NCBI GenBank assembly: GCA_032718475.1
Contig: JAUCBJ010003535.1
Location: forward strand, 1 to 64,000
DNA from: Nemertoderma westbladi
Lineage: Eukaryota > Animalia > Xenacoelomorpha
Direction: 5' to 3'
DNA: 64,000 nucleotides
The notes under the pieces are model-generated. The model saw nothing but the letters and a program-made list of their open reading frames with translations. It did not search any database and was not told the DNA's origin. Each line of letters begins with the position of its first letter. The first letter of the stretch is position 1. Below are positions 2,371 to 47,718 of the stretch, one piece after another. The position numbers and the translations under genes were made by a program.

Positions 2371-5300
2371 TCACGTTATGGAGTCCCTAGATATTTGTCG
2401 GATTAGGGAAGTAGTCGTAGGAAGAGTATCTTGCCTTCCATAGTTTCCGGACAGTTTTCGGTCTCTTTCCAGTAAATATAAACGACTAGCTGGGCGATTG
2501 AGTTGTTGTGTTACTTTCTCCGCTCCCTTGGCCTGTCTAACCTCCGCCGTGGTAAGATGAGGAGGCCATTCTTCTTCTTCTTTACTTAAGAAGTCGGATC
2601 CACCTAACCAGCCTGGAGTATCTATTAGTTCTTGAGGAGTTGCTCCTCTGGAAGCGATGTCGGCTGGATTAATCGTCCCAAGGCAATGTCTCCATTGATC
2701 TACATTGGAGTTAATATCGTCATTATCTGAGGAGTATGGTGTTCCCTCAGTTGGATCGTCCACATCACTGCTCTCCACTTCCCATTCCTTTACTTGGTAT
2801 ACCTGTTGTTGAGGTAATCTCTCTTTGAGAGTTCTACGGGAAGGGCCAGTGAAGTACCAACCTACTCTAGTTCTTACCGCATAGGTTTGCAGTGGCTGCG
2901 GTTGAGCAGGCCGTTTCTCCAATGTCTCGAGCGCCTCATGCGCGTTTTGGCCGATGAGTATTTGCACGCCAGGATAATCTGTCTGGAATCGAGGTATCTT
3001 AAGATGTTGGATGCTCTCATCCTCGTCCCAATTATAAAGGTCTGCTTGGGTAGTAGCGAAGTTCTTTATAGCCACCAATTTTACCGACCTTATACCTTGT
3101 GCTCCTAATTTATCCTGGGGGGTGGACAACACACCTACATAGTAGTCTGCCGTTAGGGTAGATTTCCAAACCTGCATAATTCCTGACATATTCAATTTAG
3201 TCCGGAATTTGGGTTGTCCAGCAAAGATATCTTCGGCTAGTTCTTGATCGATGAATGTTCCTGTGCTGCCGGAGTCAAGGAGGGCGTTCACTATGTAACT
3301 TTTGTTAGGACCGTGAATTCTTACCTGCACTACAGGAAATTCTCTGATTCCTACGTTGGAAGTTGGAGCTTTCCAAGATGGTTGTCTGTCAAAGGTAGTT
3401 GGGGGGAACTCATTTTCGGTGTCCTTTTCATGCGTAAGTGCTCGATACACTGCGGTATTTATTAGGTAACAGGATTCGTTGGCGTCGGAGAATTCGTCCG
3501 TATAGAATCCTTCCATCTCAGATTCTTGATCAGTGTCATTTACATCACTGAATTGGACATGTAGTTCGGGCTCACTTACCTGACTCGGGTTGTCTCGTTC
3601 GAACTCACTGTGTAACAAGATGTGATGTTTCGCGCCACACTTTGCACACTTTACGTCGGAGTAACAGGTTCGCCGTTGGTGTCCTGATCTGAGGCAATTA
3701 TAGCATAACCGCTTATTCCACAGGACTGCACATCTGTCTACAAGGGATTTCTTTAGAAATTCAGCACACGCGCTCAAACGGTGGGGCCCGTCGCACAGCG
3801 CACATTTTGGTTTGATGTTACTCACTTTACCTTGGATAACGTTATGCACTCTCGTTCTTTCTTCGGGCTTTCTTCCGTGAATTCTCTTAGGAGACGGAGG
3901 AGGAGTTGTTGTTACCTGTTCTCTCCTGTCACTGGTTCGAGACTTGTATTTACTTACGTCTTTATAGGTCTTGTTGTCATAGTAAGATTTTGCTGTGTCT
4001 TTCCCGCTGTCCTCTTCTTGAGAAGCTTGGCTTTCGCCGTCGTCAGTATAACACACTGGTATTATCCTTCTCCTAGAAACGGGTTTCTCACTTACCTTAT
4101 TTTCCGATGTTTTCTCTCTGGACTGCCTTATGAGTTGTAATTTTACTTCACTATCTAAGAAGGACATGAGATCAGCCATGGTAGGGCTTCGTCGTTGCTG
4201 CTCATTCATGTACAACACTTTCTTGTCCCAGCGTGTACATACTCCACCCTTTGGTAAAGTAGAGACTACGGCTCCAATAACCATGGAACTCTGATATTCA
4301 TGAGACTTACCTAACCAGTCCAATTGTCTACAGATCTCCTGAATCTCATCGGAAAACTCTATAATCCCGCTACTAAGGAAGTTTCGGGGGGCTACTAATT
4401 TTGCATACAAATACTTAGCTATGTTATCCTTGTTACCATACCTGATGTTTAATGTATCCCAAACTTGTCTTAATCCTTCTGGATGTCCAATAAACTTTAA
4501 CGCCATTAACTTGGGAGGTCCTTCCAAGCACTTGATGAGGAATCTAAGTTTCTCTCCGTTAGATAGTACAGAGTTCTGTATGCTATCTTTGTAATATTCA
4601 TTAAAAGGTAACCATTTCATCTCATCTCCATTGAATTTGACGATTTCTCCCACTTTGACCGTTTGGCGGGCTTCTGTTCTAGCCATCTGACGCGTAAAGC
4701 TTTCTTGGGCCATCGTGTTATTTAATATCGAATTATCGGTATATAAATTTCCCGGATTATTATCAGGTCTATAGGGAATATCATTAACAACAGGTTTATA
4801 ATCACCCTTAATAGGGTTTGCTATAGGAGTTTCTACTTCACTAGCAGTATAGATGCGTGTAGGCTCCACACCTTGCGCATGTAATACTTCAGACCTAACA
4901 GGTTGACACAATGTTACAGGAGGTATTGGTATACCCTTTTGTATATTGACTAATTTGTCGCGTTCCAGCGCGATACTTTGCTGCACTTCTTGCAATTCTG
5001 CCCTACTTTTCCTTACTGTTCCCTTAAGTTGGTAGACAGTCTCCTGCATCTGTCCGAGCAGGAGATGCATCCCCCGCCGTCCCTCCTCTACCCACTCGAC
5101 CGCCGAAGCGGGAGTCGCCAACATTTTAGCGGGCTGACGCGGGACGACAGGAGACAAATCTTTGATTTCTCTCTCAGCTTCCAGGACAGGGATATTCTCA
5201 TGGACTGTTCTACCGGGTACAGGCAGTGTAGTACTGTGTAAAGGGAATTTAGAGTTAAGCTCTGGAAGTACAGGGGTCTCTAGCACAGGAGTGGCTTTTG

Positions 5301-6465
5301 GAACGACAGGCCTAATTATTTCAGGCTCATCAACTATAGTAGGGAGTTTTTTGACCTGAATAATTTGTTCTGTGGGTTCTGTACTACCTAAGTCTGTGCT
5401 AGCTAGTTGTCTTCTAACCGCTGGGGGCAAATCAGGCAATTTGTGACGGTGAGATGTTTTTCTACGCCTGCTTAGACGAGATCTATTTCCTCCGCCTTCA
5501 GGATCGGTGGTCTCGCCTTCCTCCGATGATGTGTATCCTTGGCGCTTGGGAGTAGATCGACTCCTCATCTGCATTTGACTAGCAGTTAACTGTTTATTTA
5601 TGCAGTCTTGCGTCTCTTGAAGATTTTCCAACTCCAGTTGTGTGGTCTCCTCAGAAGCTCTCCGTTCTGCTTCTGCCACTGCCATTGCTGCTGCTGCTTT
5701 GGCTGCTTCCACTGCCTCTGCCGCTTTCACTGCCGCTGCCGCTTTTGCCGCTGCTATTGCCTTTCTGTCCTCTATCGCTTTTTTCTTTACTTGTTCTTCT
5801 TGGACTCTAACGAGGCGGAGTTTTTCATCAAATTTAGCTTGGTTTGCAGCTAACATTTCCGCATCGATTGCGTCCAACACAAGCTTGGTTCCTTCACTAT
5901 TAGGGCGAAGTCCAGACAGTCGTCTCCTCAACTCTTTGTCTCCTATGAATCGCTGATAGTCTGACAGATAGATGTCAATGGCGTCTCTAGTTCGCGGCTT
6001 CTCTGCTGCTGTTAATTCGCTTTCCACTTCGCTTTCCTCCTCGCTTTCCACTTGAGAAGAAGTGGCGTCGGTTGATTCTTCATAGGTTGGCCGCTCATCA
6101 TAAACCGTATCCGCCATCTTCGCTCCGCGTTCGGGCGTCCGCTCAACAGTATCCGAACTACTGGAGCTATCGGGCCGCTGATAACTAGGTTCTTGGCTAG
6201 GAGGTTGCTGCTGTTTTATAGCTTCTTCTTGATCCCGCTTGACTTGGGCCCGAGTACCTATGGCAGACCAACGGCGCTTCACTAACTTCGCAAATTGCGA
6301 AATCTTTTCTACCAACCTAGGTTCTGACACAACCACTGCAGGGGTTGCCCTTCTTACAGTATGAGGGGTTTCAGACCTCGGTCTGGGATTCTCTACACTT
6401 TGATCTGAGAAACAGGCTGTTGTTTCTAGGAGACTATCTGACAGAGTTTGCCTTGTGTCAGCCAT
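2371..6465 (-). CDS. gag-pro: BEL/Pao Gag-aspartic protease polyprotein (1364 aa), lacking RT and integrase
   Basis: Coiled-coil N-terminus; DUF1759-like KFNGDEMKWLPF; BEL/Pao triple zinc knuckle (CALCDGPHRLSAC, CYNCLRSGHQRRTC, CAKCGAKHHILLH); protease ALLDSGSTGTFI..ILIG..RTRVGW; then only the RNase H tail WRH..NPADIASRG. No YxDD or integrase motifs. Confidence 0.93.
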   Translation of the reverse strand: MADTRQTLSDSLLETTACFSDQSVENPRPRSETPHTVRRATPAVVVSEPRLVEKISQFAKLVKRRWSAIGTRAQVKRDQEEAIKQQQPPSQEPSYQRPDSSSSSDTVERTPERGAKMADTVYDERPTYEESTDATSSQVESEEESEVESELTAAEKPRTRDAIDIYLSDYQRFIGDKELRRRLSGLRPNSEGTKLVLDAIDAEMLAANQAKFDEKLRLVRVQEEQVKKKAIEDRKAIAAAKAAAAVKAAEAVEAAKAAAAMAVAEAERRASEETTQLELENLQETQDCINKQLTASQMQMRSRSTPKRQGYTSSEEGETTDPEGGGNRSRLSRRRKTSHRHKLPDLPPAVRRQLASTDLGSTEPTEQIIQVKKLPTIVDEPEIIRPVVPKATPVLETPVLPELNSKFPLHSTTLPVPGRTVHENIPVLEAEREIKDLSPVVPRQPAKMLATPASAVEWVEEGRRGMHLLLGQMQETVYQLKGTVRKSRAELQEVQQSIALERDKLVNIQKGIPIPPVTLCQPVRSEVLHAQGVEPTRIYTASEVETPIANPIKGDYKPVVNDIPYRPDNNPGNLYTDNSILNNTMAQESFTRQMARTEARQTVKVGEIVKFNGDEMKWLPFNEYYKDSIQNSVLSNGEKLRFLIKCLEGPPKLMALKFIGHPEGLRQVWDTLNIRYGNKDNIAKYLYAKLVAPRNFLSSGIIEFSDEIQEICRQLDWLGKSHEYQSSMVIGAVVSTLPKGGVCTRWDKKVLYMNEQQRRSPTMADLMSFLDSEVKLQLIRQSREKTSENKVSEKPVSRRRIIPVCYTDDGESQASQEEDSGKDTAKSYYDNKTYKDVSKYKSRTSDRREQVTTTPPPSPKRIHGRKPEERTRVHNVIQGKVSNIKPKCALCDGPHRLSACAEFLKKSLVDRCAVLWNKRLCYNCLRSGHQRRTCYSDVKCAKCGAKHHILLHSEFERDNPSQVSEPELHVQFSDVNDTDQESEMEGFYTDEFSDANESCYLINTAVYRALTHEKDTENEFPPTTFDRQPSWKAPTSNVGIREFPVVQVRIHGPNKSYIVNALLDSGSTGTFIDQELAEDIFAGQPKFRTKLNMSGIMQVWKSTLTADYYVGVLSTPQDKLGAQGIRSVKLVAIKNFATTQADLYNWDEDESIQHLKIPRFQTDYPGVQILIGQNAHEALETLEKRPAQPQPLQTYAVRTRVGWYFTGPSRRTLKERLPQQQVYQVKEWEVESSDVDDPTEGTPYSSDNDDINSNVDQWRHCLGTINPADIASRGATPQELIDTPGWLGGSDFLSKEEEEWPPHLTTAEVRQAKGAEKVTQQLNRPASRLYLLERDRKLSGNYGRQDTLPTTTSLIRQISRDSIT

Positions 6466-6626
6466 GTTTGATTGTACAGTTGAATGCCTACTGCTATATT
6501 ACAGTTAAAGCAAGTCTAGTAATTCAGTATCACTGTTAGCCTAATAATTAATTACCGATACTGCTACTCAGTGTAGCGTGATATATATATAATATATTAG
6601 AATACCGGTATGCTTATAGTATATAT

Positions 6627-10834: not shown

Positions 10835-10845
10835 ATAACTGTTAT
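10835..10845 (-). promoter_or_regulatory. Non-tRNA primer-binding site of element A (ATAACAGTTAT), complementary to LTR 11572-11582
   Basis: Abuts the LTR end, does not start with TGG, and has an exact 11-nt complement inside the LTR. Confidence 0.7.
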
Positions 10846-12081
10846 TGTACGCGCTTTTGAAGACCTTTAGCAGTTTAACCTGCCAAAATTTATATGTCTT
10901 TTGGTTTATAAATAGACTTTAGAAGATGACAAATATTTAATACCAATAAACACAACATTAGCAGAAGCCAGCCTAGTGCGCGTCCTTTCACCCGCTGGAT
11001 ATACCCGGGAGACTGGATTCTGAGGGCTTAGATTATTATTGCAGTGTAAGCTTACTGTATTGTATTATTCGATTGATCGTTAATAAATAATTTCTGACTA
11101 ATATTATTCACTTTCGGGAAATATTAACAGTTCCTTTAGGATGTGGCGCTCTATCTAGGTAAACAGAGATATGACTTATACTAATCACAACGGTAAGTCG
11201 GTAAGGCTTATGATTCACGTATGAGGCGCATTCTTTAGGAAATGCTTAGTTATCAGTCACAATCATGCACACTACCGGTAACACACAATACTGCTCACTA
11301 ATTTGCCGACCGTCAATGAATTTTATCATATATAAAGCGAACAGCAACTGACTCATGTAGGGCTTATCAAATAGCATTAAATTCACTACAAACCACAATA
11401 ATATAAGTCGCAATCGCTATATATAACCCGTCTCTCTAACCTGTAGTGTATCAAGAAAATTGGGAAATTTGGGTTCTTTTTATATGTTCTCCAAATAATA
11501 TTCAACCAAAACACAACAGTAAACAGCATTAAGACGGTATGTTAAGATATGATATGACAAGATGTGACAAGATAACAGTTATACGCTCTATAGTCTTAAG
11601 CCTACTAATGTTTCTTCTAAAGTCTGAAACGAATTGACTCTAGAGCCGGTGTTCCTGGCCTAGATAGCAACAACACAACAGTATCACAAAAAACAGTAAG
11701 ACTGAACACTCCTAGTATCATCGGCCGAATATCTACACGTCGACAGAAAAAATCGCTCTGATTGGCTCAAACCAAACAAAGAACCGTGCGTCCAATGGCT
11801 GTTTCCATGCCAGCAACCAGCTGCTAGATGTCGCAATCTGAATCATCAAGGCCAAGCCGTGTAAAGGTATTTGGTGCATTGCGGGTTTTTTGCCTTACCA
11901 TGTCCGCCAAAGCAGGTATATAGACGAATGACTTTTATGTCCGTTAAAACACCTGTAACAGTACCTTGCGGGCGAGGGGAATATATATACAGTTAGAGAA
12001 CCTTTTAGAGTATTCCAGCGCCTGGGGGGAAACTGGATTGCGAAGCAAAGGGGCCAGTTATATCCCACAGAAGCTTTTACA
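10846..12081 (-). repeat. 5' LTR of element A (1236 bp)
   Basis: Begins TGTACGCGC and ends GCTTTTACA like the element B LTRs; shares conserved internal blocks, a CCAAT box (11761-11765) and Inr-like TTCAGTC (about 11703). Confidence 0.85.
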
Positions 12082-15614: not shown

Positions 15615-17080
15615 TTTTAATAATAGTTGGATCCAAGCGCCCCGCCCACTCTCGTGACACCTCTGATTACTAATTACTCTTACCTATATCCAGCAGTCTG
15701 CAGTTCCATAGTCTGCCGCTAGAGGGCGTAATATCTGAAAATTAACATCGCTAACTTTGTTATTTTCATTCTGACTAGGTTTAAACTCGTTAGGCATCTA
15801 CTATATCATAGGCTATATCTTTAAAGAGTCGCAGAGTAGTCTGAAGTTCTACAGTCTGCCGCTAGAGGGTGAAATGTCTCAAAGTGAAAACCTGATCTCA
15901 TTTGAATGTTTTTAATAGATTCGGATTTAATTTTAATTTTTAATTAGTATTTTTAATTTAATTTAAATTTTAATTTAATTCGGATTAAGACTCGGATTTA
16001 AGACATGAGGCACTCCTAAATCATCGAGTTTTAGGTTTGAGCCACAGACTATGCCTCACTGAGACATAGACTATGCCTCACTGAGGCAGTGAGGCACAGA
16101 CCATGCCTCACTGAGGCACAGACTATGTCTCACTGAGGCACTGAGGCACAGACTATGCCTAATGAGGCACAGACTATGCCTCAGTGAGGCATAGTCTGTG
16201 CCTCAATGAGGCATAGTCTGTGACTCAGTGAGGCATAGTCTTTGCCTCAGTGAGGCATAGTCTGTGCCTCAGTGAGGCATAGTCTGTGCCTCAGTGAGGC
16301 ATAGTCTGTGCCTCAGTGTGGCATATCATGTGCCTCAGTGAGGCATAGCCTGTGCCTCAGTGAGGCATAGTCTGTGCTTCCGTGGGGCATAGTTTGTGCC
16401 TTAGTGAGGCATAGTCTGTGCCTCAGTGAGGCATAGTCTGTGCCTCAGTGAGGCATAGTCTGTGTCTCAGTGAGGCATAGTCTGTGGCTCAAACCTTAAA
16501 CTCGAGGCTTTAGGAGTGCCTCAGGTCTTAAATCCGAGTCTTTAGCGGCAGACTGGAGAACTGCGGGTCGATCAACCTCCTCGGTAAAGTATAGCCTATG
16601 CCATAGAAGATGTCTACCAAGTTTCAGCCTAAATGGTTTAAAAACAATCAAATGAGATCAGGTTTTCACTTTGAGACATTTCACCCTCTAGCGGCAGACT
16701 GTGGAAATTCAGACTACTCTTTAAAGATATAGCCTTTGATATAGTAGATGCCTAACGAGTTTAAACCTAAGCGGATTGTAAATAACAAATTTACAGAAGA
16801 TGTTAATTTTCAAATAATATGCCCTCTAGCGGCAGACTGGGGAACTTCAGACTACTCTGCGACTCCGTAAAAGATATAGCCTATGCCGTAGTAGATGCCT
16901 ACCGAGTTTAAACGTAATTGGAATGAAAATAACAAAGTTAGAGAAGATGTTAATTTTTAGATAATACGCCCTCTAGCGGCAAACTATGGAACTGCAGACG
17001 GCTGGATATAGGTAAGAGTAGTTAGTAATCAGAGGTGTCACGAGAGGGGGCGTGGCGCTTGGATCCAACTATTATTAAAA
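15615..17080. repeat. Long imperfect palindrome with central inverted 20-bp tandem arrays (GCACAGACTATGCCTCACTGAG-type)
   Basis: The arm starting TTTTAATAATAGTTGGATCCAAGCGCC at 15615 mirrors the arm ending at 17080. The array switches orientation near 16180, and the right arm has extra ~145-bp subrepeats. Confidence 0.85.
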
Positions 17081-21760: not shown

Positions 21761-23784
21761 CCGAAAAACGCGTTTAGACTGATATACCTTTTCTCACTGC
21801 TGAACTCTACAAATGGTACTCATTTGGGAACGCCATGAGGTTTTAATTGATTATTTAAAAAAAACTTACGTTGGACAAATTTCATGGATTTGTATTATTT
21901 TGTATTGTTTATGTATTTATATATGGTAATTATTTATCTATCCGTATTTAGTAAAGGTTAAAGTTTGAATTTACTGGTTCTAGTCTGTGCGATTTTGGAC
22001 AATCTATTTTTATCAATAGATATAATATCTATATATCTATACAGGTTATAAGACAGAAATAAGCGATACAAACCACATAATAAGGATAAATTTGGGAAAA
22101 ATACAAATTCTTCATATAAAATCCCAGTAGAATTTCGAGTGAAAACCTGGTATTCTTCACATGGGCGCAAATGTCACCTACCAAATATCAAGAAATTAGA
22201 CTCTCGTTGACTTGAATTATATTCGTGCAAAATTTGAACTATGCAACTTGACAACAACATATAAATTCCAGAAAGACATTTTATTACATTCAGTAAACTC
22301 TACTCATATAATATTCATATCTAATAACCAAAGTAACATATTTAAGAAGTTTCTAAGGAAATATTATAAAACAAGTGCCATAAATAGGAAATAGATTAAT
22401 TAATATGCCCACGTTAATTTTAGCAATCGGGCCGCCTCTGCATGACCTTTAGTATTAGTATACTTTGGTAGGACCTCCACGTTTTTCTGTGCTTACTTTT
22501 AATTTGCGAATGAAATAAATTATCAGATTTTTATGTTCAAAATAACAAATAATTATAAATTTAATTTCCCGTCTACAATACGTTGTTATGTAAAATAACA
22601 CGATAACTCCAAGAAGCCCATCTCCCGTTAGTCAACTTTTAGATTCTCCAATCATCAATATTCATATTGTTGTGGTTGTGACTTGTAAATCATATTCTTG
22701 TTGGTTTTCAAGAACAACGTGTTGCCGCCGAGAATTTCTATCGTTGCCCGGCGCCCCTTTATTTATTGAGTATGACAGATATGCGTCGATACGTTGTTGT
22801 TGTTTCCAGTTCAATATTCCAATAATAGCAGTGCCAAGATTTGCAACATAGTATTTGGCTTGCGTGTTCCATTCCTATAACCCATCCCAACTCTATAAAG
22901 AGAGGGCCCCGCCTGGTATTTGTGACAAATGTCAATTGATCACCGTTTACTATACAGTACGGCACAATTATTGATATCTTCATAATTAGGTTGTGTATGA
23001 CAGGACAGATATAATAAGTAGGTTGCTAAGTAAACACATGTTGCTATTCTCCAATTCCTCTTGTTATTCAATAATTTAATTCCATAATTAATTACAACTG
23101 TAGTTCTTTATTACAAAGAATAACAGACATGAAGTGTGGTGCATTATTTCGGTGACGGCCCCAACCGCATGGACATCCTGAACATTTTTAAACGAATACT
23201 ATAAACATTATATTTTTCGCGGTAATTTGGCGAATACATCAAGATTTAATTATTTTTATTTAAACTCCTTCGATTACAACTGTTTTTTATTACCAACAAT
23301 GACTCGTTTTTTTATCGTATTCATATATACATATTTTTTATCGTATTCATTTATAGTGTTTGTAAACTGTACGTCGATTACATCCTATACTGTAAGCGCG
23401 TAGAACACAGCGTATTGGCGCTATATAAATACTTATTAAATAAGTATTATTATAGAAGTAGGTTTGGCTTGTTTCCATGGCATATCCATCATGGTGAACC
23501 CGTATTATTAAACTGTAAGATAGGCCTTATTTGATAGAAAATTTATTAGTTTTGATATATAATTAATTTAAACGTTTAAATGTTATTCTAAAATATTTTG
23601 TGATAAATGTGACACTGCTGGTGTTATAATTGTTTTGCTACTACAGTTTGTACATCTATAATTTTAGATTAATTAACGTACGTCCGAGGGACTTTCGACG
23701 CAATCTTCATCCTTCTCCATGTGAAAATCGACGCTAATGTGACGTCATCGTAACCCTAAATAGGCTGTTCTACCACTACACCAT

Positions 23785-24067: not shown

Positions 24068-25337
24068 CAGCATTAGTATATTATTTTAGCTTGAATAACG
24101 TGCCACTGCAACCTGCTCCTTTCCCTTAATTAATAATTTAACATTGAGGCGAGATATTAATTAGTTGAGATGCGATTAGGACCCCCCCCCCCCCCTCCCC
24201 TCCCTATCTGACCTAAACTCTACTTTATTTTTAATTTATAATAAATTATGTTAATTACGCCATGATATTGGCAGACCCAGGAAAATTAAAATCATAAAAT
24301 TATATATAAATATGAAGCTAAAATTTAAAATTTTATGTTTATTAATAGACTATACATTCATTCTTTAAAGTATATATATAACTTACTACTTACTATTCGA
24401 CGCACTATTTCTTAGAAACATCAATAATAGATAATATGTTATGTACTGCATCGTAGTATATAGAGTGTGTAGTGTGCAAATAATGGCTATGTTAGTTGTG
24501 TGAATAGTATTGCGTGCCCATTTATTTACCTACTAAGTCTGCTCTATTGATTGTGAGAGTTGATAGAAATTACGTCTTCTGTTCTCAACCTAAAGGTTTC
24601 ATTTCTGAACTCCAGTTCGCTTACTGGGAATACGAATCTAAATTTAAATATAGGTTTACTTATTAGTGATTGAATTGCTTAATTATAACTACATTGAACC
24701 TTTATAAGAATTAATATATGTTAACACTTTATTAAATGTTAAACTATAGTCTGTATGACTCCTACTGTTTGTGACTGTTCTAGTTGTAGCATTGTAATAT
24801 TTATTACGAAATAAAAACATTACCAAATATATTTTGTGATGATAGCAACTAAGTCAAGTCTTTCACTGCTTAGTTATTTAAGAGGATGTTACCCGGTTTC
24901 CATAGCAACTCGACACCATATCTCCACCCAGTGAAACGGATTAGTGCACCCCTAGATGAACGTTGTCAGGAGACCGCTAGACTACCAGAGAGACCACGGG
25001 GTAATCACTACATTATAGATTCCAGTGGGGACTCAGATACAGACAGTGAGGCTAGCGTCATAGAGATAATTAAAGTGAGCCTCCAGCAGCCTAACAAGCA
25101 AACCAACCCTAGCGATGTTCGTAATAATGTAGAAGAAACTGGTACAGTTGTTGGAGAAGAACAATTCAATAGTACCTTTAATAGGTGAGACAATTAATAT
25201 AATATTAATAATATAAATAAATCACGACAAAACAAAATTTTGTAATAGAATAAACTCGTTTTTCTAGTTTTTCAATTGTAGTTGCGAAATGTTATACTGT
25301 GCCTTGTGTTCTGTCAGTTTGATTTAGTTATTATGTG

Positions 25338-26617
25338 TGTTCGCGCTTTCAGACCTTTGGCAGTTTAACCCACCAAATTAAGATGTCTTCTAGATATTAA
25401 ATCTGTTTTTTAGTCTATGACAAGTATTTGATTCACTACACTAGTCGAAACCAATCCGTGCGCGACCATTCACCCGCTGGATATTCCCGGGAGATTGGGT
25501 TCGACGGTTTAATTTTATTGCTATGTAAGCCTAATGTATTATTCGACTGACAGTACTATATAATCTCTGACAATATTATTCACCTTCGGTAATATTAACA
25601 GTTCCTTTAGGACGTGGCGCTTTATCTATATAAACAGAGTTATGACTTAAACTACTCACAACGATATGGCTTAATTATAATTCACATATATGGCGCATTC
25701 TTTAGGAATTGCTTCTTTAACAGACTCACTCATACACAATGCTGCACAATACTGCACACTAATCTGCCAATCTTCACTGATTTTAGTCACATATAAAAGG
25801 AACACAGACTGACTCATGTAGGGTCTATCAAATAACATTAGATTCACTTCAAACCACTTTAACATAAGTCACAATCGTTTATCTGTAACCCTTCTCTCTT
25901 ACCTTCGGTATATCAAGAATATTGGGTTTCGGGGTTATTTATCGTTATTCCAAATATAATTATTCGTCAACCATATTATGAAGAACTGACGGTAAATAGC
26001 AGTATAAAACAACAATGAAAACACTGATTGTTATGAGTTTGCAATGTTTCAGCAGTCAGCATGTATCATCAGTCAGCAGTGATTCCATGAGTTTGATCGG
26101 TATGTTAGTACCGGTATGTCAGCAGTGAGATATTTACAGTTAAAGGATATATGCCCTTTATAATTAAACCTACTAGTGTAAGACTAAAAAGCAGTACAGC
26201 ACAAAATACTTCCAAGCCGTTCTTTCTTTGGCTCAAGACTGAATGTAAACACTGCACATAGGCATTGCGTCATTTCTCGGAAATTTTCTGTACAAGGAGC
26301 CACAAAACGCTCTAATTGGCTGACTGAACTGAGAGACGCCGTAGAACAAAGGAAATCAACACGTATGAATGTCAGCTGTTAACCGTAGTCATAGTAACTA
26401 CTGTTCAAGAGTAGCTATCACCCCTTTGCGTCACGAATTGCCATAGAATCATAAAATATGCCTTTCACAGTACACATACGGAGGAAATAGGTCTTAGATC
26501 CTCTAAAAACACCGATACAGCAATAATACGGTCTCTTACACTTATTAAATCAACTACAGAGTATTTTAATGTAAAAGATAATAAAAATAACGGGGCAATT
26601 CAGCAAAGGCTTTTACA
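25338..26617 (-). repeat. 3' LTR of element B (1280 bp)
   Basis: Direct repeat of 35764-37044; by eye it differs only by one A in a homopolymer. Confidence 0.96.
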
Positions 26618-26627
26618 CCGCTCCCAG
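26618..26627 (-). promoter_or_regulatory. Polypurine tract
   Basis: Sense CTGGGAGCGG immediately before the 3' LTR TGTA; a short G-rich PPT as in BEL/Pao elements. Confidence 0.7.
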
Positions 26628-29511: not shown

Positions 29512-32500
29512 TTACGTTATGGAGTCCCTAGATGTTTGAAGGATTAGGGAGGTGGTCGTGGGAAGAGAATCTTGCCTTCCACAGTTTCCGGAGAGTCCTC
29601 CATTCCCTTCCGATAAACACAAACGACCGACTGGGTGATTGAGTCGCTGCATCCTAAATACAATTCCAGGTTTCCTCTTCGTCCTGGAATAGTGACGATA
29701 GAAACATCGCTCAAAGTATATGACGGCGTCACAAAGCCGATTCCAGGAGCTATAGTGGTCCGTCGCTCTCTGCAGGAGAGGTGAGAGTCCCTGCGAGACG
29801 TCTGATGTTCCAGAGCTCCAATCGCTCTCTCTGATCTTCATGAAGGATCCACTCGCGGTGGGGAGGCCCAGATCCACGGCGTCGTCCCTGGCAACATGTA
29901 ATACCGACAGATCTATCCCGGGTTCAAATAACTCCGATCCACACGTCCGGGTTTCAGGTTCGACTTTCTCCGCTCCCTTGGCTGGTATAATCTCAGTCTG
30001 AGTAAGATGGGGAGGCCATTCATTCTCCTTACTCAGGAAGTCGGGTTCACCTAATCGGTCTGTAGTATCTGTCAGTTCTTGAGGAGTTGCTCCTCTGGAA
30101 GCGATGTCCGTTGGATTAAACTTCTTGGGGCAATATCTCCATTGATCTAAATTGGAGCTAATATCGTCATTATCTGAGGAGTATGGTGTTCCCTCAGTTG
30201 GGTCGTCTCCCTCACTAGTATCATCTTCCCATTTACTCCGCTGGCAGACGCGATCTTGAAGCAGTCTTTCTCTGAGCGTTCTACGGGAAGGTCCAGTAAG
30301 GTACCAACCTACTCTAGTTCTTACCGCATAGGGCTGAAGTGGTTGCGGTTGAGCAGGTCGTTTCTCTAATGTCTCCAGCGCCTCATGAGCGTTTTGGCCG
30401 ATGAGTATTTGCACTCCAGGATAATCAGTCTGGAATCGAGGTATGTTAAGATGTTGGATGCTCTCATCCTCGTCCCAATTATAAAGGTCTGCTTGAGTAG
30501 TAGCGAAGTTCTTTATAGCCACCATTTTCACTGACCTGATGCTATGTTCTCCTAGTTCGTCCTGGGGGGTGGACAACTCACATATATAATAGTCGGCAGC
30601 TACAGTAGAATTCCAAACCTGCATGATCCCTGACAGGTTTAGCTTGGTTCGGAACTTGGGTTGTCCAGCAAAGATGACTTCGGCTAGTTCCCTATCGATG
30701 AATGTTCCTGTGCTACCGGAGTCCAGGAGGGCGTTCACTATATAGCTCTTCTGAGGTCCGTGGACCCGTAACTGGACTACAGGAAATTCTCGGATTCCTA
30801 TGTTGGAAGTTGGCGCTTTCCAAGATGGTTGTTGATCGGAAGTAGTTAAGGTAAGGTCGCTGTCTGTGTCTTTCTCATACACGAGTGCTCGATACACTGC
30901 GGTGGTGTTTATTAGGTAACAGGATTCGTTTTGGTCGGAGAACTCGTCCGTATAGAATCCTTCCATCTCAGATTGATCAGTGTCGTTCACATCACTGAAT
31001 TGGACATGTATTTCGGACTCACTTACCTGACTCGGGCTGTTTCGTTCGAATTCCGTGTGCAACAAGATATGATGTTTTGCGCCGCACTTTGCACACCTTG
31101 CGTCGGAGTTACAGGTTCGCCGTTGGTGTCCTCGTCTGAGGCAATTATAACACAACCGCTTATCCCACATGACTTCACGTCTATCCTCGAGTGATTTCCT
31201 CAGGAATTTATCACACGCATTTAAACGGTGGGGCCCGTCGCACAGCACACATTTGGGCTTGATGTTACTTACTTTAACATGTGCTGTGTGGTGCACACTT
31301 GTTCTTTCCTCGGGCTTTCTCACCTGAATTCTTTTAGGAGACGTAGGAGGGGTTTTTTGTACCGGTTCCCTTCTGTCATTGGGTCGAGACTTGGATTTAC
31401 TTACCTGATCTTTAGGCATTTTATTGACATAAGATCTGTCAGTGTCTTTCCCGCTGTCCTCTCCTTGAGAAGTTTGGCTTTCACCGTCGTCGGTATAACA
31501 TACTGGTGTTACCCTTCTCCTAGAAACGGGTTTCTCACTTACCTTGTTTTCCAATGTCTTCTCTCTGGACTGCCTTAGGAGCTGTAATTTCACTTCTCCA
31601 TCTAAGAATGACATGAGATCAGCCATGGTAGGGTCTCGTCGTTGTTGTTCCATCATATATAACACTTTCTTATCCCAGCGTGTACCTACTCCACCCTTCG
31701 GTAAAGCAGAAGCCACTGCTCTAATAACCATAGCACCCTGATACTCATGAGACTTACCTAGCCAATCTAATTGTCTGCAGATCTCCTGAATTTCATCGGA
31801 AAACTCTATAATCCCGCTGCTAATAAACTTTCGGGGCGCTACCAACTTTGCATACAAATACCCAGCTATGTTATTCCTATTACCATACCTGATGTTTAAT
31901 GTATCCCAAACTTGTCTTAATCCGTCTGGATGTCCAATAAACCTTAACGCCATTAACTTGGGAGATCCTTCCAAGCACTCGATGAGGTATCTAAGTTTTT
32001 CTCCATTAGATAGTACGGAGTTCTGTATGTTATCTTTGTAATATTCATTAAAAGGTAACCATTTCATCTCATCTCCATTGAACTTAACGATCTCTCCCAC
32101 CTTTACCGCTTGCCGGGCTTCGGTTCTAGCCATTTGACGCGTAAAACTTTCTTGGGCCATCGTGCTATTTAATATCGAGTTATCGGCATATAAATTTCTC
32201 GGATTATGATCAGTTCTATATGGAATATCATTATCAACAGGTCTATAATTACCCTTAATAGGGTTCACTATAGGAGTTTCTACTTCGCTAGCAGTATAAA
32301 TGCGTGTAGGCTCCACACCTTGCGCATGAGATACTTCAGACCTAACGGGTTGACACATTGTTACAGAGGTTGGTGGTATACCCTTTTTTAAGTTTACTAA
32401 TTTATCGCGTTCTAACGCGATACTTTGCTGCACTTCTTGCAACTCTAACCTGCTTTCCCTCACTGTTCCCTTTAAATGTTGGACAGTCCCTTCCAACTCT

Positions 32501-33558
32501 CGGACCTGTTGGGAGGAGCGTATCCGATTCTCCTTCATCTCTCCGAGGAGAATATCCATCCCCCGCCGTCTCTCATCTACCCAATCAACCGCCGAAACGG
32601 GATCCGCCAACGTCGTAGCGGGCAGACAAGGGACAACGGGCGACAAATTCGGAATATTTCGCTCGGGGTCCAGGACCTGAACTGTCTCTCGGGCAGTTCT
32701 ACGGGGCACAGGTAGCTTAGTGCTATGTAGAGGGAATTTATAGGTAGCTTCAGGGAGCACAGGTGTATCTATTACCGTAGGGGTGATTTCAAGAACAGGC
32801 CTAATTATTTCAGGCTCATCTACTATAGTAGGGAGTCTTTCTATTTTAATTATTTGGTCTGTGGGCTCTGTACTACCTAAGTTGGTGTTATTTAGTTGCC
32901 TTCTAACAGCTGGAGGCAAATCAGGCAATTTCTGACGGTGGAATGTTCTTTTACGTCTGCTTAGGCGAGATCGATTTCTTCCGCCTTCAGTGTCGGTGGT
33001 ATCGCCTTCCTCAGATGAGGTATACCCTTGTCTTTTGGGAGTAGATCGACTCATCATCTGCATATTACTAGCTGCTAACTGTTTACTGAAGTCGTCTTGC
33101 TTCTCTTGAAGATTTTCCAACTCCAGTTGGATGATCTCTTCAGCCGCTTTTCGTTCTGCTTCCGCCACTGCTGCCGCTTTTGCCTCTGTTCGTTCTGCTT
33201 CCGCCTCTGCCGCTGCCGCTTTTCTTTCTGCCTCTGCCACTGCTGCTATCTTTCTGTCTTCTATACGCTTTTTCCTTACTTGTTCTTCCCTTTCTCTAGC
33301 GATGCGGAGTTGTTCATCGAATTTAGCTTGGTTCGCCGCTAACCTATCCACATCAATCGCATCTAACACAAGTTTGGCTCCTTCGCTATTAGGGCTAAGT
33401 CCCTCTAGCCTTCTCCTCAACTCTTCATCTCCCACAAAACGCTGATAGTCTGACAGATAGATATCAATGGCATCCTTCTTATGCGGTTTCTCTGCCGTCG
33501 CTTCGCTCTCGGTCGTATCTAGTAGACTGTCTGACAGGTTCTGCTTTGCATCAGACAT
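29512..33558 (-). CDS. gag-pro: BEL/Pao Gag-aspartic protease polyprotein (1348 aa), lacking RT and integrase
   Basis: Same motifs as element A: triple zinc knuckle, LLDSGS protease, WRY..NPTDIASRG, and SSWNRLCDAVIYF post-RNase H linker remnants. Confidence 0.94.
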   Translation of the reverse strand: MSDAKQNLSDSLLDTTESEATAEKPHKKDAIDIYLSDYQRFVGDEELRRRLEGLSPNSEGAKLVLDAIDVDRLAANQAKFDEQLRIAREREEQVRKKRIEDRKIAAVAEAERKAAAAEAEAERTEAKAAAVAEAERKAAEEIIQLELENLQEKQDDFSKQLAASNMQMMSRSTPKRQGYTSSEEGDTTDTEGGRNRSRLSRRKRTFHRQKLPDLPPAVRRQLNNTNLGSTEPTDQIIKIERLPTIVDEPEIIRPVLEITPTVIDTPVLPEATYKFPLHSTKLPVPRRTARETVQVLDPERNIPNLSPVVPCLPATTLADPVSAVDWVDERRRGMDILLGEMKENRIRSSQQVRELEGTVQHLKGTVRESRLELQEVQQSIALERDKLVNLKKGIPPTSVTMCQPVRSEVSHAQGVEPTRIYTASEVETPIVNPIKGNYRPVDNDIPYRTDHNPRNLYADNSILNSTMAQESFTRQMARTEARQAVKVGEIVKFNGDEMKWLPFNEYYKDNIQNSVLSNGEKLRYLIECLEGSPKLMALRFIGHPDGLRQVWDTLNIRYGNRNNIAGYLYAKLVAPRKFISSGIIEFSDEIQEICRQLDWLGKSHEYQGAMVIRAVASALPKGGVGTRWDKKVLYMMEQQRRDPTMADLMSFLDGEVKLQLLRQSREKTLENKVSEKPVSRRRVTPVCYTDDGESQTSQGEDSGKDTDRSYVNKMPKDQVSKSKSRPNDRREPVQKTPPTSPKRIQVRKPEERTSVHHTAHVKVSNIKPKCVLCDGPHRLNACDKFLRKSLEDRREVMWDKRLCYNCLRRGHQRRTCNSDARCAKCGAKHHILLHTEFERNSPSQVSESEIHVQFSDVNDTDQSEMEGFYTDEFSDQNESCYLINTTAVYRALVYEKDTDSDLTLTTSDQQPSWKAPTSNIGIREFPVVQLRVHGPQKSYIVNALLDSGSTGTFIDRELAEVIFAGQPKFRTKLNLSGIMQVWNSTVAADYYICELSTPQDELGEHSIRSVKMVAIKNFATTQADLYNWDEDESIQHLNIPRFQTDYPGVQILIGQNAHEALETLEKRPAQPQPLQPYAVRTRVGWYLTGPSRRTLRERLLQDRVCQRSKWEDDTSEGDDPTEGTPYSSDNDDISSNLDQWRYCPKKFNPTDIASRGATPQELTDTTDRLGEPDFLSKENEWPPHLTQTEIIPAKGAEKVEPETRTCGSELFEPGIDLSVLHVARDDAVDLGLPTASGSFMKIRESDWSSGTSDVSQGLSPLLQRATDHYSSWNRLCDAVIYFERCFYRHYSRTKRKPGIVFRMQRLNHPVGRLCLSEGNGGLSGNCGRQDSLPTTTSLILQTSRDSIT

Positions 33559-34869
33559 GTTTGTTTATACAGTTGAATGCCTACTGCTGTATTACAGTCT
33601 GAGCAAGTCTAGTAACTCAGTATTAACTGCTAGCCTAGTAATTAATTACCGGTACTGCTACTCAGTGTAGCGTGATATATATAATATATTAGAATACCGG
33701 TATGCTTATAGTATATATAACTATTATTACAGACTAGGTTTATCACAGAATACCGGTATAATTTTAGCACAAATATATGTAAAAATATAATAGGCCTATC
33801 GGAATACCGGTATACAGCTTACAGTTTGTAGTATATATAATTCTGAACTAGAATTAATTACAAGTACCGGTATAATTTCAGCCTAAATTTATAGAAATAA
33901 AGATAATAGGCCTATCGTAAATACCGGTATATCAATTATTTTAAATAACTGAATTTCTGAATCTCAAGGGTTACTTAGTTACTTTAACTTACTTTATTGC
34001 CGTTATTTAAGCAGTAGTCCAACTGATATTGAGACCTAATGGTTGTATGGTAGGCCTACGATTTATAAATCGTTAGATTTGATTTATAATATATATATAC
34101 CCGTTTTAATGGGTTTTGTCAATGTTTGAAATAAATGTTATTATTTCTGGGGAGTAATCACTACACAAAGCGGTGCGCTTTCAGTGAAGTGTTACGTACA
34201 GGACACTAAAACAAATAATACTAATTTACCTAAGTTACTTAATACTACAAATTACGTACAATTCGGGTGAGATTACAATCTCTAAATAAACACAAAAATT
34301 TACAAAAAAAAACACAAAATACGAATTTTTAGGGTAATTTTACAAGAAGTTTACAAACCAGCCTAACAAAGGGTTAGATAACCGGTTATTACAACGGACA
34401 GAGTACTACGGTATTTGAAATAATAAGTAGTAGTAAATACACTGCGTTGTCTAGATAGGAAATACCACCGCCTGACGACCTATAGCCGTATCGCTATAGG
34501 TTCTACGTTATGTATCACGGAGTGTTCCTACCTAGAAGTTAATAGAGCTAATCGAATGTGCCTATCAACCACTTTACAACACAAATATAATGCCTACAAT
34601 AATTACTTCGGAAAGTACTGTACACTAAACCCTAAATTAGGTACGAGTACTTGTACAACAGATAATCTGTAGTTAAATATACTTGAACAGCTAAAAGAAC
34701 CACGGCATCTGCTGGAGTGACCGATGCACAAAATCACCAGTCTTTACCTACGCCGAGCAGCCCGTGTAGTACCGGGGTTAATTTAACTATAACGGTATGT
34801 ATAACAAACACAATTACTGTAGGAACAAACTTGGGGAATTGAATGTTGCGAATAATTGCATAAACTCTG

Positions 34870-35440
34870 AATAATAAATATTACGCTACGCGTACAAACT
34901 ACTCAAACAAAATACAGACCGAACACTGACAGACTACTATCAAGTCTAAACAAACTACGGTATATGCAGACTCCGAAATGATTAGGGAGTATGCGCTCTA
35001 ACCCAGTAGTGCGACTTATTCTTTAGTTGGGGGTTTACCTTACCGCATTGGCTGCCCCTACTGCCTAATCGTACTTAATCGGACAGATGATCTACACACG
35101 CGGCAATCCGTTCAGACCTAATAACAGCCAGACAACTATCCAGCCTACAAATTATTTAAATAAAATTATACGCTACCCGTACAGACTTACACAAACAAAG
35201 TACAGACTAAACGATGGCAGACTACTCTCAAGCCTAAATAAACTACAGGACATGCAGACTCCGAAATGATTAGGGAGTATGCGCTCTAACCCAGTAGTGC
35301 GACTTATTCTTTAGCTGGGGGATTACCTTACCGCATTGGCTGCCCCTACTTCCTAACCGTACTTAATCGGACAAGTGCTCTACACACACTGCAATTCGTT
35401 CGGACTTAACAGCAATCAGACAACAGCTCAGCCTACAAAT
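34870..35440 (-). repeat. Tandem duplication (288 bp period) of a structured leader domain, element B
   Basis: AGTATGCGCTCTAACCCAGTAGTGCGACTTATTC occurs at 34988 and 35276. Confidence 0.85.
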
Positions 35441-35752
35441 TGTCTGTACAATCTGATCAGGTTTACACGCCTTCTGTTCAATACTGGCCTACAAACAAAT
35501 AAAACTTGACAGAAATAAGTAAAATCTCAATAAAAAATCAGGGCGGCCGTTCCCTGATTAAGTACTAAGACCTACCGGTATACAACTATCAAAATCGAAT
35601 AGTACTGCTGTACCTGTACTGCTGTAGGTACCGGTCCGGGTGGTTAGGTAGTCAGGCCTACTGGTACCGGTTCTGGCAGTTGGGCCTACTGACCTACAGA
35701 TGTACCGGTTGACCGGTACTTTTAACTTTATTGCTTACTGCAATAAGAAGCA

Positions 35753-35763
35753 ATATCCTTTAA
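35753..35763 (-). promoter_or_regulatory. Non-tRNA primer-binding site of element B (TTAAAGGATAT), complementary to LTR 36566-36576
   Basis: Abuts the LTR, lacks TGG, and has an exact 11-nt complement in both LTRs (36566-36576, 26140-26150). Confidence 0.72.
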
Positions 35764-37044
35764 TGTTCGCGCTTTCAGACCTTTGGCAGTTTAACCCACC
35801 AAATTAAGATGTCTTCTAGATATTAAATCTGTTTTTTAGTCTATGACAAGTATTTGATTCACTACACTAGTCGAAACCAATCCGTGCGCGACCATTCACC
35901 CGCTGGATATTCCCGGGAGATTGGGTTCGACGGTTTAATTTTATTGCTATGTAAGCCTAATGTATTATTCGACTGACAGTACTATATAATCTCTGACAAT
36001 ATTATTCACCTTCGGTAATATTAACAGTTCCTTTAGGACGTGGCGCTTTATCTATATAAACAGAGTTATGACTTAAACTACTCACAACGATATGGCTTAA
36101 TTATAATTCACATATATGGCGCATTCTTTAGGAATTGCTTCTTTAACAGACTCACTCATACACAATGCTGCACAATACTGCACACTAATCTGCCAATCTT
36201 CACTGATTTTAGTCACATATAAAAGGAACACAGACTGACTCATGTAGGGTCTATCAAATAACATTAGATTCACTTCAAACCACTTTAACATAAGTCACAA
36301 TCGTTTATCTGTAACCCTTCTCTCTTACCTTCGGTATATCAAGAATATTGGGTTTCGGGGTTATTTATCGTTATTCCAAATATAATTATTCGTCAACCAT
36401 ATTATGAAGAACTGACGGTAAATAGCAGTATAAAACAACAATGAAAACACTGATTGTTATGAGTTTGCAATGTTTCAGCAGTCAGCATGTATCATCAGTC
36501 AGCAGTGATTCCATGAGTTTGATCGGTATGTTAGTACCGGTATGTCAGCAGTGAGATATTTACAGTTAAAGGATATATGCCCTTTATAATTAAACCTACT
36601 AGTGTAAGACTAAAAAGCAGTACAGCACAAAATACTTCCAAGCCGTTCTTTCTTTGGCTCAAGACTGAATGTAAACACTGCACATAGGCATTGCGTCATT
36701 TCTCGGAAATTTTCTGTACAAGGAGCCACAAAAACGCTCTAATTGGCTGACTGAACTGAGAGACGCCGTAGAACAAAGGAAATCAACACGTATGAATGTC
36801 AGCTGTTAACCGTAGTCATAGTAACTACTGTTCAAGAGTAGCTATCACCCCTTTGCGTCACGAATTGCCATAGAATCATAAAATATGCCTTTCACAGTAC
36901 ACATACGGAGGAAATAGGTCTTAGATCCTCTAAAAACACCGATACAGCAATAATACGGTCTCTTACACTTATTAAATCAACTACAGAGTATTTTAATGTA
37001 AAAGATAATAAAAATAACGGGGCAATTCAGCAAAGGCTTTTACA
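35764..37044 (-). repeat. 5' LTR of element B (1281 bp)
   Basis: Direct repeat of 25338-26617; CCAAT box at 36742-36746 and Inr-like TTCAGTCTT at 36661-36669 on the sense strand. Confidence 0.96.
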
Positions 37045-37480
37045 ATGTGGCCTTTCAGATATAATTGTATTATGTCATTGCTGTTGCTAACTAATTAATT
37101 TGTAGTAAAATAATCAAAAACAACAATTTTCATATGGATGAATAGTTTGTTACACTGACCGCGGATTTTGAATATTATATCGCTATTTTTATCTTGCAAT
37201 GGGGTGAACCAAAATTCGGGTTTCAATTTGTTTGGTTTTATTAAATCACGGTGAATTTTCTGATTGGTGTAATGGATACTATAAATACATTATTAGGCCT
37301 ATAATATTATTGAAATATTACTTATATATATGGGCACAATCGATTTTTGAAAGTTGGAATTTTTCATAATGTGTGCATTTTCTGTGGAATTCCCCCTATG
37401 GAATGGGTGCAGGGACTGTGATAGCAGTGCTTAGGAGTGAACCTTGAAATAACCATGTTAGGCTACAGTAGTATATAGAA

Positions 37481-45296: not shown

Positions 45297-46223
45297 TGTA
45301 TTCTGTAAAAAGATCTATCCAGACATCGGGAAACAACTTTGACAAGGTATTGGATAACGTCATTTGCATGGAGCCACATACCCGCAGTAAGGTTGATGCA
45401 GCCGTTACTGGGTTATTTACACATACAGTACTGTAGATAATATTGTTTTAAAATAAATACAAATACTTGATCGTAGATAGATGTGGGATTATCGTCGTCA
45501 GTTAGAGCTGTACACTGGTATCGATTGGTACATACTGTAGAATAGGGATTATTGTAGATTGTCTGCAGTCAATACCTACTACATACACTTATACTGTAGT
45601 GCAGTAGGCCTTGTCTTCAGTACATCTATATAATATACTGTATATGGAGAAAGAGAAACAAGACAACTTATTTTCTTAAAATGGTGGCAAATTTACTTTA
45701 AATAGGCCCCTACCTACTGTACATATTGGACGGATAATACAACATCTGACAATTTTTCCCAAATAAGTCACATATTTTTAACGTCAATTATTTAGTACTT
45801 CCAAATTTATTCGTAATTATTATATAATTTATTGTTTTAGAGTTTTTAATCGAGTTAGTTCAATAAATCAATGCAGTGAAGCAATAAAGAAGATGCCAAG
45901 TGTATTTTGGAAACGGATGAATAATAGAAACTCACAGTGGTAAGTAATAAATAGGCATAAGTAGGGTAAGTACTGTATGTACAATAGAAACTCACAGTGG
46001 TAAGTAAGAAATAGGCATAAGTAGGGCTCAACAGAAGCTTCGGCTTCGGTTCGGTTCGGGCCGAAGTTTGGCAATTTCGGTTCGGTTCGGCTTCTGCAAT
46101 TGATACTGCAGAAGCCAGGAGCAAACTTTGCTAATTATTCCAAGTATTATATTGACTGATTGAGCTAAGACCAGAAGACAGTAAGACTAATCAATCTGTC
46201 CATCGTTGTACTAATTAATTTTG

Positions 46224-47621
46224 GGGTGCAAACGTTAAGCAGACACTGGTGCAGAGCAGACAGTAGGTACAGACAGTGGTGCAGACAGTGGTGCAGACAG
46301 TGATGCAGACAGTGGTGCAGACACCTGGTGAAACAGTGGTGCAGTCGTGCAGCCACTGGTGCAGACAGTTGTGCAGGCTTTGATACAGACAGTGGTGCAG
46401 ACAGTGGTGCAGACACTGGTGCAGACACTGGTGCAGACAGTGTTGCAGACAGTGGTGCAGACACCTGGTGCAGGCACTGGCTGACTGGTGCAGACACTGG
46501 TGCAGAGCAGACAGTGGTGTAGACAGTGGTGCAGACACTGGTGCAGACAGTGGTTCAGACACTGGTGCAGACAGTGGTGCAGACAGTGGTGCAGCCAGTG
46601 GTGCAGACAGTGGTGCAGCCAGTGGTGCAGACAGTGGTGCAGATACTGGTGCAGACACTGGCAGACTGGTGCAGACAGTGATGCAGACAGTGGTGCAGAC
46701 ACCTGGTGAAACAGTGGTGCAGTCGTGCAGCCACTGGTGCAGACAGTTGTGCAGGCTTTGATACAGACAGTGGTGCAGACAGTGGTGCAGACACTGGTGC
46801 AGACAGTGTTGCAGACAGTGGTGCAGACACCTGGTGCAGGCACTGGCTGACTGGTGCAGACACTGGTGCAGAGCAGACAGTGGTGTAGACAGTGGTGCAG
46901 ACACTGGTGCAGACAGTGGTTCAGACACTGGTGCAGACAGTGGTGCAGACAGTGGTGCAGCCAGTGGTGCAGACAGTGGTGCAGCCAGTGGTGCAGACAG
47001 TGGTGCAGATACTGGTGCAGACACTGGCAGACTGGTGCAGACAGTAAAGGCTGAAAGGGGCGAGCAGGTTAGTAAAGGAGCAGTTTAGTAAAGGAGCAGG
47101 TTTCAGAGGAGTATTGGGGGAACCAAAACAATAAACGTTATTGTTTTGGAGGCTAAGAATACCCAAGGGCCAAGAATACTCACAGGCTAAGAATACTCGC
47201 GGACTAACAATTCCTGAGACCTTACTGTAGTTAGTCTGCACTGTCTGCACCACTGACTGACTGTCTGCACCAGTGTCTGCACCACTGTCTGCACCAGTGT
47301 CTGCACCACTGTCTGCACCAGTGTCTGCACCACTTTCTGCACCACTGTCTGCACCACTGTCTGCACCAGTGTCTGCACCACTGTCTGCACCAGTGTCTGC
47401 ACCACTTTCTGCACCAGTCTGCACCACTGTCTGCACCAGTGTCTGCATCACTGTCTGTACCAGTGTCTGCCGCACCACTGTCTGCACCACTGTCTGCACC
47501 AGTGTCTGTACCACTGTCTGCACGCTGCACCACTGTCTGCACCACAGTCTGCACCACTGTCCGCACCAGGTGTCTGCACCACTGTCTGCACTGCACCACT
47601 GTCTGCTTAACGTTTACACCC
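46224..47621. mobile_element. MULE/Foldback-type non-autonomous element with inverted 12-bp arrays
   Basis: TIR GGGTGCAAACGTTAAGCAGACA / TGTCTGCTTAACGTTTACACCC; 9-bp TSD TTAATTTTG (46215-46223, 47622-47630). Confidence 0.9.
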
Positions 47622-47718
47622 TTAATTTTGGACTGAACTTCCATTTAAATGGCATTATTTTTTTAATTGTTTTCAGTTTACTTGGGTAGTTTCAAAATTA
47701 GCTTATAATTATACAGTA

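Follow-up and report, generated by a model that had tools for sequence, protein, structure and literature searches.

Elements A and B, two sibling LTR retrotransposons on the minus strand of the 64-kb stretch of DNA analysed here (the window), are BEL/Pao derivatives that on balance likely prime reverse transcription, much as Tf1 does, with an 11-nt LTR stretch of their own RNA, and it is considerably more probable still that they self-prime in some form. Self-priming is a known mechanism, and would be new here in a family described as tRNA-primed. The two elements are 77-88% identical over their aligned parts, and are laid out as follows.

35764..37044, minus strand: 5' LTR of element B, 1281 bp, TG...CA, differing from the 3' LTR by a single 1-nt indel
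25338..26617, minus strand: 3' LTR of element B, 1280 bp, with the 11-mer present again at 26140-26150
37045..37049 and 25333-25337, no strand assigned: target-site duplication of element B, 5 bp, ATGTG
26618..26625, minus strand: likely PPT of element B, a short purine-rich tract adjoining the 3' LTR
29512..33564, minus strand: open frame of element B, 1350 codons from stop to stop
10846..12081, minus strand: 5' LTR of element A, 1236 bp, its 3' LTR lying outside the window
2371..6498, minus strand: open frame of element A, 1375 codons, with the same domain set as in B

The frame of B encodes a DUF1759 Gag, Cys/His knuckles, an aspartic protease motif and, at the C-terminus, a short fragment of the Pao RNase H region; DUF1759 scores above its cut-off in both frames, and in both a stretch of about 45 amino acids close to the end of the frame corresponds to the last part of the RNase H region in full-length BEL/Pao polyproteins. 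Gag and protease are of the BEL/Pao type in A and in B, and B also has the LTR organization of such an element (TG..CA ends, target-site duplication and PPT), A being represented by a single LTR within the window. Their relatives are likewise BEL/Pao, with PF05380 present in all six matches of one protein search and in five of the six top matches scanned in another, and the best of these relatives carry Peptidase_A17 and DUF5641. A and B thus resemble the Belpaoviridae in their DUF1759 Gag, Cys/His knuckles, protease and C-terminal Pao-type RNase H motif, as well as in LTRs of ~1.2-1.3 kb with TG..CA ends, the 5-bp target-site duplication and the short purine tract, but they differ in having no 18-nt PBS for tRNA-Arg or tRNA-Gly, no reverse transcriptase and no integrase. 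In fact, a tblastn search with six full-length BEL/Pao relatives found neither of these two enzymes in the whole window, and the PR-RT-RH-IN set of the family is absent from A and B, in which only the ~45 amino acids at the end of the RNase H region are left. Two protein searches returned no close autonomous partner, the best matches being only 22-38% identical. Judged by their coding content, A and B are non-autonomous, highly repeated derivatives of BEL/Pao LTR retrotransposons, not complete members of the family.

The family is very abundant, as 13693 contigs of public run X1 and 2539 of run X3 fall on the 1.5-kb LTR region, although these figures are not a copy number. Its known range points to an animal host (PMC3601003). 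The LTRs of B are one base apart and its target-site duplication is intact, which marks B as young and recently reverse-transcribed with its present PBS. In both A and B, the frame that joins Gag and protease to the tail of the RNase H region stays long and open, and this openness despite the loss of reverse transcriptase and integrase suggests selection on Gag and protease in a semi-autonomous family. One relative (P0015) has a domain set similar to that of A and B.

The evidence for self-priming centers on the bases directly behind the 5' LTR, on their counterpart within the LTR and on the hairpin beside them.

35753..35763, minus strand: PBS of element B, 11 nt, sense TTAAAGGATAT, with no spacer after the LTR and no TGG
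36566..36576, minus strand: candidate self-primer of element B, LTR positions 469-479, with its predicted 3' end at 36566
10835..10845, minus strand: PBS of element A, sense ATAACAGTTAT, directly after the LTR
11572..11582, minus strand: candidate self-primer of element A, the exact complement of its PBS
35782..35803, minus strand: conserved U5 hairpin of element B, 8 bp, in which the pair U-G becomes C-G with the common allele at 35798

Much of what an earlier sequence-only reading had claimed about these sites was borne out. When the sequence was rechecked, the 11 nt that follow the LTR proved in both elements to be the exact complement of the LTR site listed above, and the two LTR sites occupy homologous positions in the alignment. 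A PBS starting with TGG, which that reading had found lacking in both elements, is indeed absent: the leader of B is free of TGG over its first 300 nt, and the first TGG in A lies at +268. The four differences that it counted among the 11 PBS positions of A and B were confirmed, as was the compensation of all four at the LTR site (conditional p 3.7e-5 given four changes), and the C that it placed next to the 3' end of the would-be primer is present in both elements. In B this C, at 36565 and just past the primer 3' end, sits opposite the terminal A of the LTR, and in A and B alike the last base of the primer would pair with the base directly behind the LTR. Both elements have what characterizes Tf1-type priming, namely a post-LTR PBS that complements an ~11-nt segment of the 5' LTR.

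Each 11-mer is single-copy within its own LTR, and the PBS of B is the sole 11-mer, of 1989 in the leader, with a perfect LTR complement; the leader of A has one further perfect LTR-complement site (three overlapping 11-mers). Among 5000 dinucleotide-shuffled LTRs, a match of at least 11 nt at offset 0 arose seven times for B and four times for A, and 19 and 23 times, respectively, when offsets of 0-5 were allowed. A chance match, or a functionless scar of template switching or gene conversion, is consequently a very improbable origin of the pairing and is largely refuted: the 11-mers are AT-rich and A has another short inverted match between LTR and leader, but the rarity of such matches in the shuffles, the homologous positions and the four matched changes out of four all argue against it, as does the youth of B, which was reverse-transcribed with its present PBS. 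The duplexes of each PBS with its own LTR site reach -16.2 and -17.9 kcal/mol versus -5.7 and -3.8 kcal/mol for the cross duplexes between A and B; the core primer:PBS duplex is only about -10 kcal/mol, which counts against self-priming.

The pattern of change between A and B is also informative. The two PBSs are identical at 7 of 11 positions, similar to the LTR region beside the partner site (18/26), and the flanks of the PBS are more alike (33/38 and 39/44; Fisher p 0.058). All 11 pairs between PBS and LTR site are Watson-Crick in A and again in B, and the U5 hairpin beside the PBS shows one-sided G-U steps between the two elements in three of its eight pairs. According to the accessible parts of two papers, plus-strand synthesis in LTR elements copies the primer into PBS DNA (PMC7175516, PMC11042837), and Tf1 cDNA has the PBS, copied as DNA, at its 3' end (PMC11042837). 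A PBS recopied from the primer, without a wobble intermediate, would explain the strict Watson-Crick match, and changes in an LTR site that served as primer would enter the PBS directly, which is the pattern seen. The strict match spans 11 nt, or 12 with a common allele at 35752, and the point at which it stops hints at the length of the primer. This allele, at leader position +12, accounts for 88% of the depth in run X1 and 87% in run X3 and adds a twelfth Watson-Crick pair; A and B are without it.

This pattern also bears on the rather improbable alternative that a host RNA (an internal tRNA fragment or small RNA) is the primer, and that the LTR:PBS helix is structural or regulatory, with a role in packaging, dimerization or circularization or as a switch that hides the PBS. 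Such priming would be in keeping with the ICTV description of the Belpaoviridae as tRNA-primed, with a PBS of 18 nt that matches tRNA-Arg or tRNA-Gly as its complement, in a replication cycle that the same description calls poorly understood (PMC8742986); half-tRNA priming exists in Ty1/copia, as the accessible part of one study reports (PMC6317226), and the region has alternative folds. The two PBS versions are 4/11 apart, however, so that no single host RNA could match both, and the match begins with the very first base behind the LTR. A purely structural helix, for its part, would be expected to pass through G-U or mismatched states, as the neighboring helices do. Four PBS 8-mers are absent from seven supplement files of PMC13524379, including metazoan tRNA 12-mers (3' ends only). 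No tRNA gene was found in the 64-kb window, and Rfam gave no match in 33500-37100.

Self-priming of the Tf1 type calls for more than a primer and its PBS. As described in the accessible part of a preprint, Tf1 needs three duplexes, the central primer:PBS helix and the pairing of both PBS-adjacent segments with the LTR downstream of the primer (10.1101/2022.12.06.519325). Candidates for both flanking helices are found in A and B.

35767..35772, minus strand: arm of the U5-end helix of element B, 5' of the PBS, pairing with 35886-35891
35886..35891, minus strand: partner arm of the U5-end helix of element B, pairing with 35767-35772
10849..10854, minus strand: arm of the U5-end helix of element A, pairing with 10978-10983
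35941..35956, minus strand: LTR arm of the third duplex of element B, pairing with leader 35733-35746 (6+7 bp, 3x1 loop)
35733..35746, minus strand: leader arm of the third duplex of element B, +18..+31, for which a local leader hairpin competes
11036..11051, minus strand: LTR arm of the third duplex of element A, pairing with leader 10816-10829

In both elements, the U5-end helix pairs positions -4..-9 with a site ~125 nt upstream and contains one compensated pair (U-A in one element, A-U in the other). The third duplex pairs leader positions +17..+32 (+16..+31 in A) with a partner ~190 nt before the LTR end, at a homologous place in A and B, and this partner is the best within the 730-800 nt behind the primer (-15.1 kcal/mol in B and -16.6 kcal/mol in A). 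Shuffles equalled it in 3 of 200 cases for B and 4 of 200 for A, with a probe that had been adjusted after the fact; the first probe, which for B was without the last two bases, gave 32/60 in B and 0/60 in A. When the PBS is held occupied, the U5-end helix forms with a probability of about 0.5 in B and 0.9 in A, and the leader-LTR helix with about 0.5 in B, where the local hairpin competes, and 1.0 in A. On the strength of two sequences only, both elements are predicted to be able to form the flanking helices of the Tf1 ‘pretzel’.

Folding of longer segments gave mixed results. The last 162/177 nt of the LTR, a region picked after its fold had been seen, have z-scores of -3.1 and -2.7 in sense versus -1.6 and -0.8 in antisense. 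With a start at the primer and a 60-nt leader, the primer:PBS helix belongs to the minimum-energy structure predicted for the complete RNA of 860-790 nt (11/11 pairs in B, 10/11 in A). With a 150-nt leader, it lies 4.5-6.1 kcal/mol above the minimum-energy fold in the two elements, and the primer:PBS pair probability is at most 0.05 at all seven starts tried per element. The pretzel is a pseudoknot until the RNA is cut, and nested folding consequently cannot hold it whole, which makes the long-leader folds a weak test. The PBS of A can also fold on itself (primer-bound probability 0.25-0.7), which counts against the mechanism.

In the mechanism that these observations suggest, transcription would start at, or 1-2 bases from, 36576, and the first 11-12 nt of the RNA would fold back across ~800 nt onto the PBS, where two flanking helices, together with the primer:PBS helix, would make up the three-duplex pretzel predicted by folding. 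The RNase H of a reverse transcriptase borrowed from an autonomous BEL/Pao partner would cut before the unpaired C at 36565 and the reverse transcriptase would extend the new 3' OH straight into the terminal CA of the LTR; in Tf1, to go by the accessible text of one paper, the RNA is cut between bases 11 and 12 (PMC7175516). During plus-strand synthesis the primer would be copied back into the PBS, which would thereby take over any change at the LTR site. A primer built by splicing need not be invoked, since the DNA contains the 11-mer in one uninterrupted piece, and minus-strand intron ends were found in none of the 15 joints listed from public-run contigs.

A less likely alternative is an internal or longer self-primer, in which transcription would start upstream and the cut at 36566 would free a longer capped primer, with the PBS complement in its last 11-20 nt. 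Its start could be YTAGT at -26, for a primer of ~35 nt, or TCAGT at -92/-123.

36598..36602 (11604-11608 in element A), minus strand: YTAGT motif, at -26 relative to the start of the primer in A and in B, a possible promoter element or alternative start

That YTAGT lies at exactly -26 in A and B speaks for this alternative, as do a ~50-nt block (36565-36616) common to contigs that diverge on either side of it and the 8-9 further pairs that can be drawn upstream. CCAAT, conserved at -170 in B and -183 in A, usually lies at a distance of 60-100 nt, and is nearer this distance from TCAGT than from the primer; there is no TATA box at -30 of the predicted start. The upstream pairing is nevertheless less specific than the sequence-only reading had proposed. 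Its claim of an extension by about 9-10 pairs through G-U wobbles comes down to the 8-9 drawable pairs, which are equalled by 92 of 1240 other LTR 12-mers in B and 239 of 1195 in A, and the antisense strand, on which the extension was said not to work, is merely ~2 kcal/mol worse. Nor is the TTCAGTC proposed as a conserved Inr-like element 90-120 nt upstream conserved in place, since the TCAGT sites at -92 (B) and -123 (A) do not align in register. Strict Watson-Crick pairing ends at 11 nt (12 with the common allele), the leader bases of the extension have a better homologous partner in U5, and longer 5' ends worsen the standing of the helix in folds. The idea of an internal primer thus loses much of its support, and the non-significant extension and the out-of-register Inr favor a Tf1-like primer at the 5' end. 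Within the LTR, on the plus strand, 36212-36242 and 11329-11355 hold a conserved TATA-like box and an AP-1-like TGACTCA, a possible antisense promoter.

A further possibility, which we regard as highly improbable, is priming by an RNA 3' end: the copy of the site in the 3' LTR (26140-26150), polyadenylated or cut there, would fold back on the PBS. Every full-length transcript contains this copy, and B has a TATAAA, which we take to be a variant poly(A) signal, that ends 17 nt ahead of the 3' end of the primer. At the same place, however, A has TATAGA, and single-base deletions within the hexamer are listed in runs X1, X3 and X4; such a scheme would also imply a U5 of 800 nt and a poly(A) tail that would have to be removed.

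Contigs from public runs give some information on variation around the primer; none of the 11 runs listed is recorded as RNA, which has no bearing on expression. In four runs, no substitution at a level of at least 1% is listed in the 11-mer of B, but only five substituted places are listed in the 231 nt covered, so that an invariant primer says little alone. In favor of the Tf1-like mechanism, the indels and loose ends of the family set in 1-3 nt beyond the 3' end of the primer, with joints and loose ends located at 36563-36565. Among the 12 common alleles listed for the last 162 nt of the LTR, in a tally drawn from 40 of 130 rows, seven fall at unpaired places, four keep a pair and one breaks a weak pair. 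A rise in depth near 36565-36606 in run X4 was rejected as a start signal; overlapping contigs of two LTR versions explain it. One contig of run X5 (record 26) carries a third version of the LTR site, 2/11 from A and 2/11 from B, followed by C. Scans of viral contig and genome contig collections yielded no further relatives, and the phased LTR/PBS pairs number two. A metagenome match (L001) is a chance 22-mer, unrelated to the window by blastn; this contig appears phage- or archaeal-virus-like, with methyltransferase-like, PAPS-reductase-like and IS200-like frames recognized by eye.

Compared with the Tf1/sushi group of Ty3/gypsy chromoviruses (Tf1/Tf2 of S. pombe, Tj1, Tosmo and Tcry1), as the accessible parts of the literature describe it, A and B share an 11-nt PBS straight after the CA of the LTR that complements a site in the 5' LTR, the lack of a tRNA match and the three-duplex layout, which is predicted here. 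They differ in their BEL/Pao Gag and Pao RNase H tail, in being non-autonomous and in the ~800 nt that separate primer and PBS; moreover, start site and cleavage have been shown for Tf1, whereas those of A and B are predicted from sequence. The proteins of A and B are BEL/Pao-like and not those of Ty3/gypsy chromoviruses, which places the elements outside the Tf1/sushi clade, and they appear to work like Tf1 without belonging to it. The PBS of A starts with ATAAC (10841-10845) and that of B does not; the PBS of Tf1 begins with ATAAC according to the accessible text of PMC11042837, and the shared start may be due to chance.

The sequence-only reading named Tf1 (Ty3/Gypsy) as the established case of self-priming, and this holds in that self-priming has been shown for Tf1; Ty3/gypsy is not the sole family concerned, since self-priming has been predicted for the Ty1/copia TAR lineage as well as for Tf1/sushi elements and Tcn1, as far as the accessible parts of these papers go (PMC7175516, PMC4600332, PMC6317226). 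For TAR, the prediction was based on at least 10 nt that are complementary to the LTR and begin 0-5 nt behind the 5' LTR, in the accessible text of PMC6317226, a feature that A and B share with the TAR lineage (Houba, Osr-1) and plant Tcn1, although those are plant elements of other families. TAR and Tcn1 show that self-priming likely arose more than once, and BEL/Pao would be a further origin. We found no report of self-priming in BEL/Pao in the literature searched, and subscription journals, Repbase Reports, GyDB and bioRxiv supplements, which lay outside its scope, could hold such a note. The accessible parts of PMC3601003, PMC6934838, PMC5443660, PMC13524379 and PMC3286476 contain none, and the words primer, PBS and tRNA do not occur in PMC3118150.

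That this is a tRNA-independent, convergent self-priming system, as first proposed, stands as the best explanation and is supported by the three-duplex fold and the pattern of change, while still being read from sequence. We lean towards the view that an animal BEL/Pao lineage independently reinvented the whole Tf1 device, comprising the 11-nt self-primer, the unpaired base at the cut and the pretzel across an 800-nt loop, with a PBS rewritten in each cycle, primers that drift between subfamilies, and the device acting in trans for a family with Gag and protease only. If true, this would change the ICTV picture of the Belpaoviridae and make a self-primed branch of BEL/Pao the third such family, after Ty3/gypsy (shown) and Ty1/copia (predicted), and the recurrence of this helix length and fold in a family unrelated to that of Tf1 would suggest that the reverse transcriptase and RNase H themselves impose a constraint. 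Self-priming would free such elements from any control that the host exerts through its tRNA supply or tRNA fragments, and would explain why PBS finders that seek TGG miss them.

Several other features of the window were observed. The leader of A is interrupted by a 2.1-kb insertion (6627-8744) with terminal inverted repeats starting CCCTGCAAACAAT and ATAT on either side, likely a non-autonomous DNA transposon and perhaps piggyBac-like. The leaders of B and A each contain a 288-bp tandem duplication (34882-35441 and 9902-10481), and short 38-nt repeats of the AGTACCGG type lie just behind the PBS. Arrays of 12-bp units occur as inverted pairs at 19800-21800 and 46200-47700, ~1 kb and 0.2 kb apart, and other minisatellites are located at 16038-16557, 49548-50353 and 63588-63984.
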